Origin: Microcoleus sp.
GTDB lineage: Bacteria > Cyanobacteriota > Cyanobacteriia > Cyanobacteriales > Microcoleaceae
DNA: 64,000 nt
Assembly (NCBI GenBank): GCA_042408215.1
Contig: JAYFMW010000005.1
Span: 416,001 to 480,000, forward strand
Reading direction: 5' to 3'
The position numbers were made by a program, and so were the translations under genes. The notes beneath the pieces are model-generated. The model made no database searches and was not told where the DNA came from. It worked only from the letters and a program-made list of their open reading frames with translations. Of this stretch, positions 5,338 to 50,521 are shown piece by piece. Every line of letters begins with the position of its first letter. Positions within the stretch are counted from its first letter, which is position 1.

Positions 5338-6297
5338 TTTTTTGAGTTCTTTAAGTAATGTTTAATGGAGCGGTTTACCAAGAATGCAATGCTCGCAACT
5401 GGGGTGTTTTTTTCGACTGGTGGGCTTCCATCCGAGTCAGGACATCATCCAGAATGGTGATGGCTTCAGCAATAAACGGGCCTTTATTTAACATGACGCA
5501 CTCAGCGCGTTCAGCCATTGCTGCATCCGTCATCTCTCCCCGTGAAGGTGCTCCATTTTTGACCAAGCTTTCTAGCACTTGCGTTGCCCAGATTACAGGA
5601 ACATGAGCTGCTTCGCAAAGCCAGAGAATTTCTTCTTGAATCTCGCTCAATCGTTGGTATCCGATTTCAACGGCTAAGTCACCTCTAGCAATCATCACGC
5701 CAAATGATTGTTTACCCGCCGCATGAATGATTAATTCTGGCAGATTACAAACCGCGATCGAAGTTTCAATCTTTGCCACGATCGCCGGACTGGTTAAACT
5801 TCCTCCTAAACGGCGATTCAACTCTTGTTGAAGTAACTCAATATCGGCCGCTCGCTGCACAAAAGAGTAACCAATAATATCTGCGTGAATGGCGACAAAA
5901 TCCAGGTCACATAAATCTTTCGCAGTCAGGGGACTAAGCGGCAAGATTGTGTTCGGAAAATTTAACCCCTTTTCGGGTCGAAGTTTGACCCCTTTTGGGC
6001 TAGCATGAGTAACTTGCAATAACAGTCCTAGTTGCCCATCTGGTAATGGGAATTGAGTGTCAATCACGCGAGTCCGTATCTTGCCATCATCAATATACAG
6101 GGGTGCGTCAACAACTAATAAATCGAGAATTTCGGGAACCGTACAGCAAAATTGGAAATTGTCTACAGGTGATGGGATTGGCTCACCTGACTCTACTTCA
6201 CTTCCGGGTTCAGGTACGCACCGCGACAGCAAGATCCTGACGGTGTTACGCTTTACAACCCTGAACAAACAGGGCATACGCGATAGCAATACTCTCA

Positions 6298-7617
6298 CTA
6301 TTGATAGAGAGAGCTCTCGTAGCCGTCCCTCAAAGCTCGAATCATAATGTTTCGAGCGCCGCCCCAATCTCGGTCATGTTCGTGACCGCAGTTGGGGCAT
6401 TTAAATGTTTTTGAACCACCAAGCTTTGAATGTTTGTGTCCGCATTTGGTGCAAGTTTTGCTAGTGTAGGATTCGTTAACGTCAATAACAACAACACCCC
6501 GTTTTTTAGCTGATTGCTTGAGGTGGCATTCAAAACGATAATGCCCCCAAGTGAGCATCTGCCTAGCAGTCTTGGTGCGTAACTTGCGCTTTGATTTAAC
6601 AACCATTTGTGATGTTTCAAATGTAGGCAGCAATATGACTTTGTATTGACTTGTCAGGTAATTAACTACCTGCTTGTGGCACTCATCAACTAAGTTGCGA
6701 ATCCTGATTCTCAGCTTGCTTGCCGCTTTTAGCATCCGGCGTTTCTGCTTTCTACTAGCTTTTGACACACGTCCCATTAGTTTGTCAAGGTGAGAACACA
6801 ATCTTTGAATGCGTCCAATGTCTGCCTTACCAAATTCTTGAAATGAGTCACCGTCGTAGCCAGTTAAAAAAGTTCTAACGCCAGGGTCAAGTGCAATTAC
6901 CTTATCCAGTTCCTTCGTCCTCACCTCTTCTGTTACTGGGATACAAGCGAACCATCGCTTTTTGTCTCTAATAAGTTGGGTCGCAAACTCGGTCTTTTGA
7001 ATTGGCTCTGTACTTCTAAAGCTAAGCCCTTTAACTAAGGATGGGAACCAAGTCTCGCCGTTGAAATTAACCTTGTGGAATTTGATTGATTGCGAGGGTT
7101 GACGGCAACTCCTAAAATTTGCCTCTCCTTTTACAAACTTGGCTTGTTTCCAGGCATCCCAAGCGTCAAAAATAGCATTTTCTTTTGGGTGAGACGGTGC
7201 TGACTTAACCCAATCAGGTAAGTCCAGTCCTAACACGTAGTCCCTCAAAGAATAAGCACTGGTTATTTTTTCGCCTGCTTTCAAGGCTGCAATAGCCTTG
7301 TTGTAGCAGTAACGCGATGCTGATAGCCAAGACTTCCATTTTTGGTGCAGTCCCAGCTCAGGATAAACCCGAATCTTAAGTGTTTTGTTGGGCGACTTCT
7401 TCTCCTTCTTGTGCCTTGGATTCGACTTGTAACTCCTGCTTGATTTGGTTTTCAAGTCTTCTAATGGAGTAAAGTCGGCTGGAAAAGCTGTGGAGGATTG
7501 CGACGATATCTTGAACGAGTTCGGCGTGTGGAGAGAGACTGATTTGGTTGAGAACCACGATTTTGCAGTCAAATTGCTCACAGAGCCATTCGATAATGTC
7601 GAATCCGAATCTTGCAA
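6298..7617 (-). CDS. tnpB: TnpB RNA-guided nuclease, rearranged RuvC (pro-Fanzor-like); true start probably near 7456
   Basis: KIRVYP N-terminus, ALDPG (RuvC-I), LLPTFE, VNESYTSKTC..C zinc finger, DRD (RuvC-III). Confidence 0.9.
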   Translation of the reverse strand: MQDSDSTLSNGSVSNLTAKSWFSTKSVSLHTPNSFKISSQSSTAFPADFTPLEDLKTKSSRSYKSNPRHKKEKKSPNKTLKIRVYPELGLHQKWKSWLSASRYCYNKAIAALKAGEKITSAYSLRDYVLGLDLPDWVKSAPSHPKENAIFDAWDAWKQAKFVKGEANFRSCRQPSQSIKFHKVNFNGETWFPSLVKGLSFRSTEPIQKTEFATQLIRDKKRWFACIPVTEEVRTKELDKVIALDPGVRTFLTGYDGDSFQEFGKADIGRIQRLCSHLDKLMGRVSKASRKQKRRMLKAASKLRIRIRNLVDECHKQVVNYLTSQYKVILLPTFETSQMVVKSKRKLRTKTARQMLTWGHYRFECHLKQSAKKRGVVVIDVNESYTSKTCTKCGHKHSKLGGSKTFKCPNCGHEHDRDWGGARNIMIRALRDGYESSLYQ

Positions 7618-8003
7618 GTCGGTCTTTGTGGGGCAACCACAATAATTGCGATATCACCTCGCAGAACTCGTCCCAAAAGCTTGATGAGTCCTTTCCTCCT
7701 AAAATTGAGTCCTCCTCCCACTTCCTTAACGACTTCAGCGCCTGGGTAGAGCGTTGATAGTCGTTCAACTTGTCGATCGAGGTCTGCCTTTTGTGGTCTG
7801 GTAGAGACGCGAGCATAGACAACAGTGGCGCGTCCAGAGTCTGGCTCTGATTCCTGTTTGATGAACTTTTCGATGTCGTACCGTCTTTGACCTGACGGCG
7901 TTTTGACGGTGGAGATATTGCCGTTTGCTTCCCATCGTCTGAGGGTTCGCAGGCAAACTCCCAGAGTGTTAGCTGCTTCATTGGGTTTCACATATTTAGC
8001 CAT
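7376..8003 (-). pseudogene. tnpA: IS607 TnpA serine recombinase with a +1 frameshift near 7632
   Basis: MerR-like HTH and YARVST; continues as HKDRLARFG in another frame (GCCCCAC where GCCCAC is expected). Confidence 0.9.
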
Positions 8004-8831
8004 AGGAAAACTTTCGCACCATATGTGCTTGTTGTCCAGCTTTTTCCAATTAATTAATTATTAGAGGCTAACCGATCGCCTCGAAACACCCGTTTTTGAG
8101 CCCGTGGCGCAAGTACCGATCCCGTGCGGATTTTGGGGCCTCCTAAGTCCATCATCACTTTACAACAGGTTCCGAGCTCCTGTTCCGCTTGACGAATACG
8201 ATCGATCATGCGCTCCCATACCTCGGTGGAATCGTGGGCGCAGTTAATTCGCAAGCAGTTAGCACCCCGTCGGACAAGTTCTCGCACAAAAGCATAGTCT
8301 GTGGCAGCTTCGGTAGGTAATGTGACCATAATTCTGACTTGGCGATGAGTCAAGGTTGGCCCGAATAATTCCTCGGTGTGCTGTCGCAGTAAACGATTCC
8401 CCTCAAAAAAGGACTCGATCGCAGGGCGGTGGAGCACCTCGTCAGAGTCTTTGCCGCAAATGACTTGCAATGTGGCAATAACGGCATCGAGATTGGGCAT
8501 TACCCGCGCTTCAATCCGTCCTAAGGATGATAAGCCCCAAGGCATTAGAGCGGCTTGGAGTTCGCGTAGATCGTGCTGTCGTAATGCTAGATACTGAGCT
8601 AAATTCAAAGCACTAGAAAGAAACTCAGTCCGCTGAATGTGCGATCGCCATTGGCTAAAGGTGGCTTGTCCTTCGCTTTCAACAGTCTGTCGCAGTGCTT
8701 GCAGAGTCGATAGCAAGACCTGTGGACTAGATAGATGCAACGGTTTAGCACTAAGTTCTTTCATTTGGGCTAATCATAGATCAAAGACTCCTGAGTAGAT
8801 GCGCGCGACCTTTGAACTCAATTATATATTT

Positions 8832-11500: not shown

Positions 11501-12991
11501 ATGTTGTTAAGCTACAAATACAAGATTAGACCCAATCAAGAACAATCAATTAAGCTAAGTAAATGGCTTGATCTGCTCAGGGCTACCTATAATTGGTGTC
11601 TGAAAGATAGAATTGATGGCTGGTATCAACAGTTTCTTATGGGGGAATATTGCGATTTACAAACCCAAGCCATCGCCACACCTTTAACTTGTGCAGTTGT
11701 GAAGGGGACTCAATTAGCGAATCCTTGGAAAGATGGAAATGGGAAAGCCCAAAAAGAAGGAGAAAAAGATAAATCACCTAAACGTACACCATCTTTAATG
11801 CAAGATGCTAATCTACAAGATTTAAAAGCGGCTAGACCTTGGTATCAAAATATTGATCTAGGAGTTTTACAATTAATTCCGGCAAGGGTGAATGAGTCTT
11901 TTAACAAGTTTTTCAAGGGTGCAGGCTTCCCAAAATTCAAGCGTCGTCACGATTTTAAGTCCTTCTCTTATAAGCCAGGACGGGTGAAATTTAAGGGAAA
12001 TAAAATCTATTTGCCTAAAATCGGATGGATGCGTTTTTATAATTCGCGCTCTATTCCCGTTGGGTTTCAAATTAAAACTGTTACAGTAAGGCAAAAAGTA
12101 GATGGTTGGTATGTTTCAGTCAGATTAGAGGATAAATCTGTTCCTGATTTTCCTAGGCGAGCCGATTCTGAAGTAAAAACAATTGTTGGCTGTGATATGG
12201 GATTAGGTAAATTGGTTTATTTGTCGGATGGAAGTGTCATCGACAATCCTCGTTTTTCTACGAATAAGAAAACTCGTCATTTAATGAAAGTTAGACAACG
12301 ACGAGTTAATCGCAAACAAAAAGGGAGTAAAAATCGTTCCAAGGCTCAACAGCTTGTTAATAAACTGCATAACAAAATTGCACAAAGACGCGAGTCTCAC
12401 CAATGGGATGCAGCTAATCGAATTGTCAAAAAAGCTGACGCGATCGCGGTTGAAGATTTGAATATTTCTGGCATGATGAAACGGTGTAAACCTGTTAAGT
12501 CTGAAACTGGCAGATTTCTTTCAAATGGACAGTCAGCTAAACGCGGTTTAAACCGTTCAATTGCCGATGCGTATTGGTATGCGTTAACCCAAAAACTTGA
12601 GTATCTGGCGGCAAAGTCAGGAAAGAGATTATACCGAGTTAATCCTAAACATACCAGCCAAACTTGTAGCCAATGTGGTCATATTGATCGAGCTAGTAGA
12701 AATGGTGAAAAGTTCATTTGTACTAACTGTGGTCATATAGATGACGCTAATTTGCAGGCTGCCAGAAATGTCAAGCAAAAAGCGATTTTCCAGAAAGGTT
12801 TAAATATTGTTAAGATTTTCAAGAAAAAGGTACGGGGGGACTCTCCGAAACCAATACAAACGACTCTTTTTGATGTCGGATTGTATGAACGCCTATCAGA
12901 TAATACGGTGCTTCCTAAAAGAAGCAAACGCCGTGTGGGTAGGAACCAAGTCGAACAATTAAGTTTGTTTAATTTGGATATTTTGGCTTAA
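11501..12991 (+). CDS. tnpB: TnpB (IS200/IS605 family)
   Basis: SYKYKIRP, GFPKFK, GCDMG, AVEDL, zinc finger, DANLQAARN. Confidence 0.92.
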   Translation: MLLSYKYKIRPNQEQSIKLSKWLDLLRATYNWCLKDRIDGWYQQFLMGEYCDLQTQAIATPLTCAVVKGTQLANPWKDGNGKAQKEGEKDKSPKRTPSLMQDANLQDLKAARPWYQNIDLGVLQLIPARVNESFNKFFKGAGFPKFKRRHDFKSFSYKPGRVKFKGNKIYLPKIGWMRFYNSRSIPVGFQIKTVTVRQKVDGWYVSVRLEDKSVPDFPRRADSEVKTIVGCDMGLGKLVYLSDGSVIDNPRFSTNKKTRHLMKVRQRRVNRKQKGSKNRSKAQQLVNKLHNKIAQRRESHQWDAANRIVKKADAIAVEDLNISGMMKRCKPVKSETGRFLSNGQSAKRGLNRSIADAYWYALTQKLEYLAAKSGKRLYRVNPKHTSQTCSQCGHIDRASRNGEKFICTNCGHIDDANLQAARNVKQKAIFQKGLNIVKIFKKKVRGDSPKPIQTTLFDVGLYERLSDNTVLPKRSKRRVGRNQVEQLSLFNLDILA

Positions 12992-23264: not shown

Positions 23265-23510
23265 GTCAGGAACCTCAGCCTAAAGGCATGAGGCTTGAAA
23301 GAGAAATCAACCCAAGCCATTCTGACCAGACCACCTAGCAAATAGGTAGCCGTTACTTGAGTCACGACACCCTGTGGATGCGAAGCTAGTCCCCTCCTCT
23401 GTCGCTAGTAGTTAAACAGTCTTAAGGTCACTGAGACAGTGCTGCGAGCAACGACAAGCTCTTGTAACAGGTCGAAGCTAACATTACCCCGCAAGGGAGG
23501 CTACTTAGTA
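23265..23510 (+). ncRNA. Orphan omega-RNA (HEARO-like)
   Basis: GTCAG/CTGAC P1; shares GTCACGACACCCTGTG, CTCTGTCGCTA and AGTTAAACA with the iscB upstream RNA; ends CCCGCAAGGGAGG. Confidence 0.8.
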
Positions 23511-23668
23511 GCAAAACACTATGCGTACAGGGCTGCAAGATTTGAAACGGTAACTGTCCCGTTGAAAGTGCAATACAAAGGTACACCGAACTCTTGCAGT
23601 TCCAAGGCGGTAGTGGCAAGAAATGTAAAGCCGTCCTAAAAGGACGGGGTTTCAAACCCATTTTTCTG
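23265..23668 (+). mobile_element. Non-autonomous IscB/IsrB element: omega-RNA, internally deleted ORF, IS200/605 end
   Basis: Begins GTCAG; ends AAAGCCGTCCTAAAAGGACGGGGTTTCAAACCCATTTTTCTG followed by ATGA (TAM-like). Confidence 0.8.
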
Positions 23669-24424: not shown

Positions 24425-25865
24425 AAGGCAGGAGATTTTTATGACAAAAACAATTGTAATCGATCCAGTCACCCGCATTGAAGGTCATGCCAAAATCTCA
24501 ATCTTTCTGGATGATCTTGGCGAAGTCTCAGACGCGCATTTTCATGTAGTGGAATATCGCGGGTTTGAGAAATTTTGCGAAAATCGCCCCATGTGGGAAA
24601 TGGCGGGGATCACATCGCGGATTTGTGGCATCTGTCCCGTTAGTCATTTACTTGCATCAGCCAAAACAGGCGATAAACTGCTGGCTGTAAAAATTCCGCC
24701 GGCGGGGGAAAAACTGCGCCGCTTGATGAATCTTGCCCAAATCACCCAATCTCACGCCCTTTCTTTTTTCCATTTAAGTTCTCCTGATTTTCTCCTCGGC
24801 TGGGATACCAATCCTGCAATCCGCAATGTATTTGGATTGATGTCTGCTAATCCCGAACTAGCAAGAGGAGGAATTCGTCTGCGTCAGTTTGGACAGCAAA
24901 TTATTGAAATATTGGGCGCGAAGAAAATCCATACCGCTTGGGCTGTCCCCGGTGGTGTGCGATCGCCCCTGTGCGAAGAAGGTAGAGCATGGATTCGCGA
25001 TCGTCTCCCTGAATCTCTTGCTACGATTGAAAATGCCCTGACTCTGTTTAAGAATTTATTAACTGAATTAAAAACAGAAGTCGATGTATTTGGCAATTTT
25101 CCTTCGCTGTTTATGAGCTTAGTTGGGAAAAATGGCGAATGGGAACATTACGGTGGACATATTCGCTTTACTGATAGTCATGGGCAGATTGTCGCTGATA
25201 ATCTGAGCGAAGATGACTATCAACAATACATCGGTGAAGCGGTTGAGCCTTGGTCATATTTAAAGTTTCCCTATTACAAACCGCTTGGTTATCCCGATGG
25301 CATCTATCGCGTGGGCCCCTTAGCACGCTTGAATGTTTGTACGCATATCGGTACGCCCAAAGCCGATCGCGAACTCCAAGAATTTCGCGATCGCGCAGGT
25401 GGTGTGGCGCTTTCTTCGTTCTTCTATCATTACGCTCGTTTAGTTGAGATTTTGGCAGCGATCGAGAAGATTGCCGAACTGATTGATGATCCTGATATCA
25501 CATCACCGCATACTCGCGCCAAGGCAGGGATCAACTGTCTAGAAGGTATTGGCGTAAGCGAAGCGCCTCGCGGTACATTGTTTCATCATTACAATGTCGA
25601 TGAGAATGGGATGATTAAAAAGGTGAATTTAATCATTGCAACGGGACACAATAACCTCGCGATGAACAAAACCGTTACTCAGATTGCCAAACATTACATT
25701 CACAATGGTGATGTTTCAGAAGGCTTACTCAACCGAGTCGAGGCTGGTATTCGCAATTTCGATCCTTGTCTAAGTTGCTCCACCCATGCTTTCGGAAAAA
25801 TGCCTTTGCTAATAGAGTTACTTGGTTCTGATGGTAAATTGCTTCAGCAATTAAACCGATGCTAA
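24417..25865 (+). CDS. hoxH: Bidirectional NiFe hydrogenase large subunit HoxH (likely start ATG 24441)
   Basis: [25 protein letters not shown]. Confidence 0.97.
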
Positions 25866-25870
25866 TTATA

Positions 25871-26105
25871 GCTATCCGCGAACCACTGGACAAACCTGGA
25901 CAATCCAGAGAAATCCTTGGTAGAGATAGCCCGGTTAAGTCTAACCACAGACTACGTTAAGAAGGTCACGACACCCTGTGAGTGCTTGCCAGCTCCTTGC
26001 TCTGTCGCTACCAGTTAAACATCTTTATTTCGCTAAGGAAGTGCTGCTAGTCTGACAAGCCCTCTTAACATTACCAAGGCAAAAATCACCCGATTATTCG
26101 GAGGC
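25871..26105 (+). ncRNA. IscB omega-RNA (HEARO-like)
   Basis: GCTATC/GATAGC P1, AAGTC...GACTACGTT, GACACCC, CTCTGTCG, CCCGA...TCGGAGG immediately upstream of iscB. Confidence 0.85.
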
Positions 26106-26110
26106 TCAAT

Positions 26111-27448
26111 ATGAGCAAAATATTCGTTGTAGACACCAACAAAAATCCTCTAAATCCTATCCATCCAGGCCGATCCAGGATGCTGCTTCAAGAGGGCAAA
26201 GCCGCTGTCTGGAAACGTTACCCGTTCACCATCATCCTGAAAGATGTTCTACCAAATCCCCAAATTGCACCCTGGCGATTAAAAATAGATCCTGGTGCTA
26301 AATTGACTGGCTTAGCACTGGTAGATGATGCAACAGGAGAAGTAGTTTGGGCCGCCGAACTAGAACATAGAGGCTTTCAAATTCGCGATGCTTTAACCAA
26401 ACGCCGCCAGTTAAGAAGAGGAAGACGCCATCGAAAAACTCGGTATCGTCAACCACGCTTTGATAACCGGAAACGCCCTACAGGGTGGCTCCCACCCAGT
26501 CTGCAAAGCCGAGTTGAGAATATCGTAACTTGGGTTCGTAGGTTACAAAAGCTAGCGTTGATTTCTGATATTTCTCAGGAATTAGTCAAGTTTGACACTC
26601 AACTCATGGAGAATCCAGACATCAGTGGAGTCGCATACCAACAAGGTGAGTTAGCTGGTTACGAAGTGCGAGAATTTCTGCTTTTCAAATTCAATCATAC
26701 CTGTATGTACTGTGGGGCTAAAGATACTCGTTTGGAGATTGAGCATCTTTTACCGAAGTCTAAAGGTGGTTCAAATAGAATTAGTAATTTAGGCATTGCT
26801 TGTAGGAATTGCAACCAAAAAAAAGGCCGTCAAGCTCTCAGAGAATTTTTAGCCCAAAAACCTGACTTGTTACAGCGCATTCTGAGACAAGTAAAACAAC
26901 AGAAAGCCGACACTGCTGCCGTTAATTCTACCCGTTGGGCATTATTTAATCGACTCAAAGAGACTGGATTATCCGTGGAAGTTGGGACTGGTGGGCGGAC
27001 AAAGTTTAACCGATGTCGTCAAAACCTACCTAAAACTCACTGGCTGGATGCTGCCTGTGTTGGGGCATCTACACCCCTCAAACTAAAAGTTTCAGGGGTA
27101 GTGCCGCTGTCAATAAGGGCTGTTGGTTATGGAAATCGTCAAATGTGTCAAGTTGACAAATTTGGCTTTCCTAAGCGTGGTAAGGAAGGTAAGCTAATCA
27201 AACGTGAGCGACAGAAAAATTACTTTGGTTTTCAAACGGGCGACATGGTTAAAGCTATTGTTCCTACTGGGAAACACGCTGGTACTCACGTTGGTAAAGT
27301 CACCGTCAGAAAATCCGGTGCATTTGATTTGACTGTGGCTCATGTGCGCTTGCAGAGTATTCGTTGGAAGCACTGCCGCGCGGTGAACCGCTTTGATGGT
27401 TACAGTTATGCCTCTTTGTCCACCAATGTCGAGTTTTTAAACGATTAG
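26111..27448 (+). CDS. iscB: IscB RNA-guided endonuclease (split RuvC + HNH)
   Basis: PLMP-like N-terminus (PLNP), KIDPG, Arg-rich RRxRR bridge helix, SQELVKFD, CxxC...EH...NL...CxxCN, HWLDA. Confidence 0.95.
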   Translation: MSKIFVVDTNKNPLNPIHPGRSRMLLQEGKAAVWKRYPFTIILKDVLPNPQIAPWRLKIDPGAKLTGLALVDDATGEVVWAAELEHRGFQIRDALTKRRQLRRGRRHRKTRYRQPRFDNRKRPTGWLPPSLQSRVENIVTWVRRLQKLALISDISQELVKFDTQLMENPDISGVAYQQGELAGYEVREFLLFKFNHTCMYCGAKDTRLEIEHLLPKSKGGSNRISNLGIACRNCNQKKGRQALREFLAQKPDLLQRILRQVKQQKADTAAVNSTRWALFNRLKETGLSVEVGTGGRTKFNRCRQNLPKTHWLDAACVGASTPLKLKVSGVVPLSIRAVGYGNRQMCQVDKFGFPKRGKEGKLIKRERQKNYFGFQTGDMVKAIVPTGKHAGTHVGKVTVRKSGAFDLTVAHVRLQSIRWKHCRAVNRFDGYSYASLSTNVEFLND

Positions 27449-27490
27449 AGGCGTACCGATCGCCTTCATGCTGAGGACAAATTAAAACCC

Positions 27491-49931: not shown

Positions 49932-50521
49932 TCAGAGCCTCCATCTTTTAACTCAGCGATTATTTTTTCCCTCTTTCTGCTAGCGCGACGTTGCCCATAA
50001 AGTCGTGCAGCAAAACTTGTGACTATCGCTACTAAGTCTTGCATTCACTCATCTTTGCCGTTCTCAGCAAGATTAACTATTTCTAGTTTGACTCCTAATC
50101 GAAGAAGCAATACGCTTAAATAATTCGTACCAAATCGAGCCAATCGGTCTTTATGCTCCACTAGCAAAATGTCGTAGTCATCTTGTTGTAGCAGTGTTTC
50201 CAACAGCTTCCTGTGGTCATTCAATCCGCTGCCGATTTCTTTTACATTCCTAATAATTTGATAACCATTGGCAATTGCGTACTCGGTCAACCGCTCTGAT
50301 TGGCGGTTAAGATTTTCTTTATTTTCGGACGAAGAGACTCTACTATAAATAGCGACTCGATTCTTCTTCACTTCGGTGGATGGTGCTTGTGGCACGTAGT
50401 CAACGATGATTAAACCGCTTTCTGTTTGTCGTGCCGGATGTGGTAGTTTATTCGCTTTCCACCACCGCCACGCAGTTGTGTAACTTATGCCTATTGCTTT
50501 GGCGTAGTCAGGTAGTTTCAT
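49922..50521 (-). pseudogene. tnpA: IS607 TnpA with in-frame TGA at 50045-50047
   Basis: YSRVSS, HKDRLARFG; reads on after the stop as MQDLVAIVTSFAARLYGQRRA. Confidence 0.9.

Follow-up and report, generated by a model that had tools for sequence, protein, structure and literature searches.

What moves an IscB element that carries no transposase gene and whose ends do not fold into hairpins? The question is raised by a 1585-bp element between hoxH and hypE in Microcoleus sp., within the 64,000 nucleotides analyzed here (the window: positions 416001-480000 of contig C5, JAYFMW010000005.1, in a cyanobacterial genome of 7.36 Mb). The element consists of a HEARO omega RNA and an iscB gene. A first-pass annotation of the window had noticed that the 3´ end of iscB resembles the left end of an IS607 element inserted in pyk, further upstream in the same window. 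We consider it highly probable that the hoxH-hypE element is a non-autonomous IscB/omega-RNA element with IS607-type ends, moved in trans by a serine recombinase, TnpA(S), and that the host octamer HIP1 (GCGATCGC) is both its integration site and the predicted target-adjacent motif (TAM) of its nuclease.

Such a pairing runs counter to current descriptions. ISC elements are treated as non-autonomous members of the IS200/IS605 superfamily, and the available part of the ISC paper predicts mobilization by Y1 transposases and describes serine transposases as less common in ISC-bearing genomes (PMC4810608, Kapitonov et al., 2016). In the accessible portions of OMEGA surveys based on gene neighborhood, serine recombinases are associated with tnpB and not with iscB (PMC10055086; PMC10691335); the latter, a survey of TnpB, sets it apart from both IscB and IsrB on this point. 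A 2026 review, in its available sections, gives IscB only under IS605 (PMC13565253).

Boundaries and empty sites

The ends of the element are fixed by a second copy and by two empty sites. The second copy lies at a TCGATCGC site on contig C21 and shares 99.7% identity with window positions 25868-27462. Upstream of 25871 the host flanks of the two copies are unlike, and the RNA scaffold and the element both start at this position. In the sister genome G008, which is ~98% identical at these loci, both sites are empty. The hoxH-hypE site reads ...GCTAATTATA-GCGATCGC-CTTCATGC... (junction bases ATTATA-GC-GATCGCC), and the site corresponding to the C21 copy reads ...AGATCGATC-GC-AATTTCAC... (junction bases GATCGATC-GC-AATTTC). 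Compared with these empty sites, neither IscB-element site has a target duplication, a scar or a loss of host bases. The boundaries are 25871/25873 to 27455/27457, with one crossover dinucleotide per junction and a body of 25873-27455. Insertion is thus conservative at a 2-bp core within HIP1, the insertion point being the last GC of the host octamer (5´-GCGATC/GC on the strand that runs from left end to right end), and the stop codon of hoxH itself (TAA, 25863-65) is left intact.

The first-pass annotation had drawn the element from 25850 to 27464 and had placed the 5´ junction at a CC at either 25856-57 or 25876-77. The two comparisons that it had proposed, an alignment with the flanks of other copies and a search for empty hoxH-hypE alleles, correct both ends and put the crossover at the GC of 25871-72. 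Crossovers at AT, CG or CC in other registers were also considered and misfit both copies and the other lineages. Among metagenome contigs from public sequencing runs, those of X11 and X2 join 25871 to 27457 and skip the 1585 bp, and those of X4 bridge both occupied junctions. Neither circle junctions nor transcript ends are visible in the contigs of the four runs examined, out of 23 listed, and coverage in RNA libraries is no sign of expression. The polymorphism of the site and the 99.7% identity of the two copies show that the element has been recently mobile.

The IS607 element in pyk inserts in the same manner. It has a second copy on contig C26 that spans the equivalents of window positions 6236-8080, and in G008 the pyk site is empty (...GCAAGAT-CC-GATCGCC-TCGAAAC...) with the reading frame RVFRGDRILLSR restored. 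A core at the CC of 8079-80 was rejected, since its removal breaks the pyk frame and the empty site places the core at 8072-73.

Ends of the IS607 type

The 36/49 ungapped match between 27416-27464 and 8032-8080 in the first-pass annotation could be reproduced, as could the identical offset from TTGTCCA to CC (27416 to 27456 and 8032 to 8072). Only the part up to 27457 is a real end with its core; the last seven bases, GATCGCC (27458-27464), are HIP1 target DNA, and the match within the element is therefore 27/40 rather than 36/49. A score of this size is near genome-wide noise: among 14.7 million positions scanned, seven reach at least 27/40, comprising two self matches, two IS607 left ends, two other IscB-type ends and one unrelated site. 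The weight of the match lies in its register with the core, in its presence at both ends and in the common mode of insertion.

In left-to-right-end orientation, each of the two elements starts ...GCGATC[GG]T(A/T)(C/A)GCCTCTAAT. The left end of both has the unit (C/G)TGGACAA 32 nt after the core, with a weaker copy one helical turn earlier, and the right end of both has a pair of TTGT(C/T)CAG-like units, of which the outer lies 23 nt from the core; these spacings between core and GGACAA repeat are equal in the two element types. At the left end of the window element the repeats are TTGTCCAC (27416) and ATGTCGAG (27426), followed by the terminal box ATTAGAGGCGTA (27444-27455), and the CTGGACAA repeats that had been noted at the 5´ side are present (Table 1). 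When five IS607 left ends and ten IscB left ends were anchored at the core and compared without gaps, they agreed at 24-39 of 57 positions; the IscB left ends match each other at 27-50/57, so the IS607 range falls inside theirs. In-register comparison of right ends gives 17-26/45 matches between IscB and IS607 elements (24-26/45 for the window element), against 4-15/45 when the alignment is slid by 1-6 bases (8-15 for the window element; a single value of 19 comes from a locus with a 1-nt deletion). Eleven other tnpA + tnpB loci, representing other IS607 lineages of the genome, were examined as a source of the ends and rejected on account of their different termini.

Folding revealed no significant DNA hairpin at either end of the window element (left end, z -0.45, -5.7 kcal/mol; right end, z -1.3), the weak signal at the right end being the pairing of the omega RNA stem. 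The ends of the pyk IS607 are likewise without a significant hairpin (z -0.61 and -0.52). By comparison, of five hairpin-type IscB 3´ ends in this genome, four fold at -12 to -14 kcal/mol (z -1.7 to -3.0). The first-pass annotation was thus right that an IS200/605-type hairpin is missing from the 3´ end, where z is -0.45 against -2.3 at an orphan HEARO RNA in the window.

These features bear on the most conventional reading, in which the hoxH-hypE element belongs with the ordinary ISC elements (IS200/IS605 superfamily) and is moved as single-stranded DNA by a Y1 (HUH) TnpA, with GCGATC as the motif beside its left end. Most IscB elements are so described, at least in the available text of the ISC paper (PMC4810608), most of the roughly two dozen IscB loci in this genome are hairpin-ended, and insertion without duplication is compatible with Y1 transposition as well. 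Against this stand the absence of subterminal hairpins, the phased direct repeats, the in-register alignment with IS607 ends, and a dinucleotide at both junctions with the GG/GC mismatch found in genuine IS607 copies (see below). We regard a Y1 origin as very unlikely, and the comparison supports an assignment of both ends to the IS607, or serine recombinase, type.

A second reading holds that the IS607-like end is an unrelated remnant beside iscB, its similarity due to chance or to HIP1. In its favor, seven of the 49 aligned bases are HIP1 target and the other 27/40 lie near noise. This reading is already refuted and retains next to no probability: the end travels with the element in the second copy and is absent from both empty sites, the right end matches too, and the same serine-type left end follows IscB in 31/80 related loci from many genera. 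These 80 are the best IscB loci retrieved from public genomes, with the end type called by regular expression.

Core dinucleotides and the HIP1 target

At both IscB-element sites the target core was GC, and the occupied sites now have GG at the left-end junction and GC at the right-end junction. The same mismatch occurs in genuine IS607 elements with intact tnpA (L108, L110 and L112). More generally, the pyk lineage of IS607 in sister genomes, with intact tnpA of 208-215 aa, always has GG at the left end and either GG or GC at the right end. Among the 31 related IscB loci the left-end core is GC in 18, CC in 10 and CT in 3, and the right-end core is GC before TAT in 15/15 right ends matched by the regular expression (the remaining 16 loci were unmatched by it). 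A preprint on TnpA(S), in the part available, reports a strict core dinucleotide, scarless excision and circle intermediates, and finds that integration of donors with an altered core leaves non-matching GC/GG cores at the two ends (10.1101/2023.11.20.567912). The pattern of the window element fits this reported chemistry, and elements of this kind may hold a natural record of core-dinucleotide mismatches.

The targeting of HIP1 goes beyond what the first-pass annotation had proposed. Each of the three empty sites in G008 resembles GCGATCG(C/G), and its final two bases are the crossover point; GATCGC follows the left-end core in 24/31 related IscB loci, and CGATC lies immediately 5´ of the core in 5/5 aligned flanks of IS607 left ends. 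HIP1 itself occurs 5123 times in the genome against ~73 expected from base composition (0.70 per kb, ~70-fold), and a random site would adjoin HIP1 in the observed register about once per 1000. The function of HIP1 is still debated, according to the accessible text of one paper (PMC13756078). Our literature search found no account that connects HIP1 or GCGATCGC with IS607, TnpB, IscB or the target sites of insertion sequences. If our reading is correct, this would be the first known case of mobile elements making use of HIP1, and a link between HIP1 and mobile elements would be established.

A widespread group of IscB elements

The first-pass annotation envisaged a local event in which an IS607-type element exchanged TnpB for IscB. 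The survey points instead to a widespread clade. IscB genes with serine-type ends are found in Microcoleus, Coleofasciculus, Scytonema, Nostoc, Tolypothrix, Westiellopsis, Brasilonema and other genera. This genome has ~24 IscB loci, most of them hairpin-ended; serine-type ends occur at the window element, the C21 copy, C5:413358-414632 and C30:110624-111907, and a solo end is present on C19. The C5 locus (L024) lies 1.4 kb before the start of the window and encodes an intact IscB of 424 aa, 58% identical to that of the window element; it, too, adjoins GCGATCGC.

Searching 27 genomes with a left-end pattern gave 39 matches in 19 of them and none with the reversed control. Thirty of these loci were retrieved, and the pattern adjoins IscB in 16, tnpA + tnpB in 2 and neither in 12. 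At one locus (L020) a HEARO omega RNA and a serine-type left end occur without iscB. For 9 of the 12 loci lacking both IscB and tnpA, no transposase-like open reading frame (ORF) stood out in a listing, a result obtained without a domain search.

In a tree of 91 IscB sequences the end-type label changes 6 times, compared with a mean of 26.7 after shuffling. When the 33 serine-type IscBs were held as one clade, the log-likelihood was 15.4 above that of the free quick tree and p-AU was 0.689; L061 was left out of this test (wrong IscB of the locus), and L041 and L070, with degenerate ends, were counted as serine type. A single origin of the group is thus not rejected, and it is not proven. Judged from the sequences at hand, the serine-type IscB elements are an old and widespread cyanobacterial clade. 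On balance we favor, with some reserve, a broader scenario in which a cyanobacteria-wide IscB clade switched from Y1 to an IS607-type serine recombinase, and in which HIP1 serves for integration and also as the TAM of IscB. For this large group it would be the ends, and not the neighboring genes, that reveal an IS607 mode of movement. It would also be the first pairing of IscB with a serine recombinase, with the reservation that the supplements of the surveys may list rare iscB-serine recombinase neighbors.

Two further observations concern the repetitive content of these genomes. Beside the C21 copy (L026, ~280-430) lies a ~150-bp repeat that occurs in 31/31 genus genomes searched, many of which have dozens of copies, and that looks like a miniature mobile element family. 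The genome also has a heavy load of RNA-guided nuclease elements, with well over 100 TnpB matches in addition to the IscB loci.

The recombinase

The mover of the element is most likely an IS607-type serine recombinase that acts in trans, as we infer from the ends. Sister genomes have an intact cognate tnpA whose elements carry a near-identical terminal box, TA(T/C)GCCTCTAAT, and use the same target. Several observations, in addition to the low score of the left-end match, weigh against this view. No tnpA(S) is found inside any IscB element among the 80 related loci. The cognate tnpA is frameshifted in both of its copies in this genome, IS607 with a matching box was seen only in the genus of the window, and the matching left-end box occurs at 0/17 TnpA(S) loci from five genomes of other genera that bear such IscB elements. 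For fifteen other TnpA(S) genes of this genome that look intact, identity to the cognate one is only 31-56%. Finally, a contig of run X14 that lacks the element (joint 25873/27459) apparently reads GCTATCGC and not GCGATCGC. This allele is not predicted by a cut at the core and might reflect strain variation or an imprecise deletion; it is weak evidence because the shorter side of the joint has only 30 bases.

An autonomous element combining iscB and tnpA(S), for which the first-pass annotation had suggested a search, was sought among the same 80 loci, and none was found. At a single locus TnpA(S) lies within 4 kb, 1.6 kb upstream of a hairpin-type IscB and outside the element.

The defect that had been noted in the pyk tnpA (7376-8003) is a frameshift. 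In both copies a C-run of the gene (near 7633 on the minus strand and at ~12150 of C26) is longer by one C, being CCCC in this genome and CCC in sister genomes. The extra C may be real or an error of homopolymer assembly. With both cognate copies frameshifted, movement in this genome either depends on another TnpA(S) or took place before the frameshift arose. The frameshifted IS607 occupies two sites, and pyk is empty in G008, which, if the frameshift is real, hints at help in trans.

The same facts leave room for ends of the IS607 type that are served by an enzyme other than the TnpA(S) of the local lineage, such as another small serine recombinase or a HIP1-specific recombinase. The missing match at all 17 TnpA(S) loci in five other genera would be explained, as would a broken cognate tnpA whose element nevertheless sits at two sites with pyk empty in G008. 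We consider this unlikely, if clearly less so than a Y1 origin: the cognate tnpA is intact in sister genomes with a near-identical box and the same target, and no other enzyme was found linked to the ends in the ORF listings, made without domain search, of nine of the twelve lone-end loci.

Proposed cycle of movement and homing

With an IS607-type TnpA(S) as the mover, the following cycle can be proposed. TnpA(S), supplied in trans, would bind the 10-bp-phased GGACAA repeats at both ends and excise the element as a double-stranded circle, with a predicted junction of ...GAGGCGTA-[GC/CC]-TATCCGCG... The circle would then integrate at HIP1-like sites by a cut at the 2-bp core. The omega RNA is predicted to start in the host flank, probably fed by read-through from hoxH, and its guide would therefore match the flank (25855-25870). 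GCGATCG, lying 3´ of the target, is the predicted TAM. Once the element has left, the emptied site would offer IscB both the guide match and GCGATCG; IscB would cut there, and the element would be copied back from a sister chromosome. At the occupied site the sequence is GCTATCC, which would protect it from IscB. Such restorative homing by IscB at HIP1 sites would be a second, independent case of a nuclease and a transposase that converge on one DNA motif, and it predicts an unusually long, palindromic and GC-rich TAM for a compact IscB.

The element resembles the IS607 family in its conservative insertion at a core dinucleotide, in the lack of duplications and inverted repeats, and in the repeat units of its ends. 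The IStron of Clostridium botulinum, also of the IS607 family, has mismatched GG/GC cores like those described here, according to the available part of the TnpA(S) preprint (10.1101/2023.11.20.567912). In the IS607 family the target motif would double as the TAM, with a guide from the right-end flank, and the same is proposed for the IscB element. The cargo differs, being TnpB with a 3´ omega RNA in IS607 and IscB with a 5´ omega RNA and no tnpA in the IscB element. The target differs as well: IS607 elements use TGGG, AGGAG or GAGGG, whereas the IscB element has a core of GC or GG and the palindrome GCGATCG(C/G). As far as the accessible text of two publications goes, most IS607 TnpBs have AGGAG or GAGGG as their TAM (PMC13565253; PMC11061315).

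With ISC elements it has in common an IscB with RRXRR, RuvC and HNH domains, a HEARO RNA directly upstream at the boundary, the lack of a transposase gene, and an iscB that is reversed relative to tnpB with respect to the ends. It differs from them in the missing hairpins, the phased GGACAA repeats and the homology of its ends to IS607 rather than IS605, and in its insertion at a 2-bp core that lies within a palindrome of 8 bp, whereas ISC elements insert beside a 4-5-nt motif. Stand-alone omega RNAs and miniature OMEGA derivatives form a further point of comparison: forms with the same ends and no iscB exist, whereas the window copy is full-length and intact. Because it has no tnpA, we classify the element as a putative non-autonomous derivative of the IS607 family rather than a full member; an IS607-type chassis with HIP1 as its target carries an OMEGA IscB as cargo. 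The proposal of the first-pass annotation that IscB and its omega RNA are bounded by IS607-type ends, in a non-autonomous element with iscB reversed relative to tnpB, is thus supported.

Features of the window

The gene order from left to right is hoxY, hoxH, HEARO RNA, iscB and hypE, the last on the strand opposite to iscB. Coordinates are collected in Table 1.

Table 1. Coordinates of the IscB element and of the reference IS607 element in the window
Feature	Position	Strand	Basis
Host flank by the hoxH stop; predicted guide part of the omega RNA, ~16 nt assumed	25855..25870	+	IscB rule: guide 5´ of the scaffold, outside the element
Crossover (core) dinucleotide GC, right-end junction	25871..25872	+	Empty G008 site ATTATA GC GATCGCC
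Right-end subterminal region; CTGGACAA repeats at 25886 and 25896, in 10-bp phase	25873..25917	+	Core-anchored match to IS607 right end
Omega RNA scaffold, HEARO, RF02033	25871..26089	+	Rfam 101.7 bits (gathering score 83); model positions 1-211
iscB, intact, 445 aa	26111..27448	+	ORF; Pfam RRXRR + HNH; solved IscB structures
Left-end subterminal region, overlapping the 3´ end of iscB	27416..27455	+	Comparison with IS607 left ends
Core dinucleotide CC (GG on the left-to-right-end strand), left-end junction	27456..27457	+	Empty site
GATCGC, rest of the host HIP1 octamer, target DNA outside the element	27458..27463	.	Kept in the empty G008 allele
Reference IS607 within pyk, core CC at 6236-37 and 8072-73	6236..8073	-	Second copy on C26; empty G008 pyk site
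GATCGCC, HIP1-like target beside the pyk IS607, not part of the element	8074..8080	.	Present in the empty G008 pyk allele

IscB is intact, as the first-pass annotation had it, with Pfam matches to RRXRR (2.6e-71) and HNH_5 (4.9e-15) and matches to solved IscB structures from 1e-29 up to 4.7e-44. Residues D60, E157, H212, N235, H310 and D313, which we take to be catalytic, are invariant across four diverged homologues. The start of the Rfam HEARO match is a poor marker of the exact boundary, as match lengths range from 155 to 221 nt across loci.

The reference IS607 in pyk encodes tnpB (6298-7617, 439 aa) and tnpA on the minus strand; Pfam identifies TnpB domains and, across two frames of tnpA, MerR and Resolvase.

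An orphan HEARO omega RNA without iscB (23265-23487, plus strand, 118.3 bits) is flanked by hoxY and a dihydroorotate dehydrogenase-like gene. On the 3´ side it has a hairpin near 23630-23650 (z -2.3), and it is therefore of the usual hairpin type, unlike the hoxH-hypE element. Two weak tblastn matches, to TnpA(S) at 49985-50521 (minus strand, 35% identity, one stop) and to TnpB at 12278-12787 (plus strand, 27%), suggest that the window harbors additional decayed IS607 or TnpB elements.

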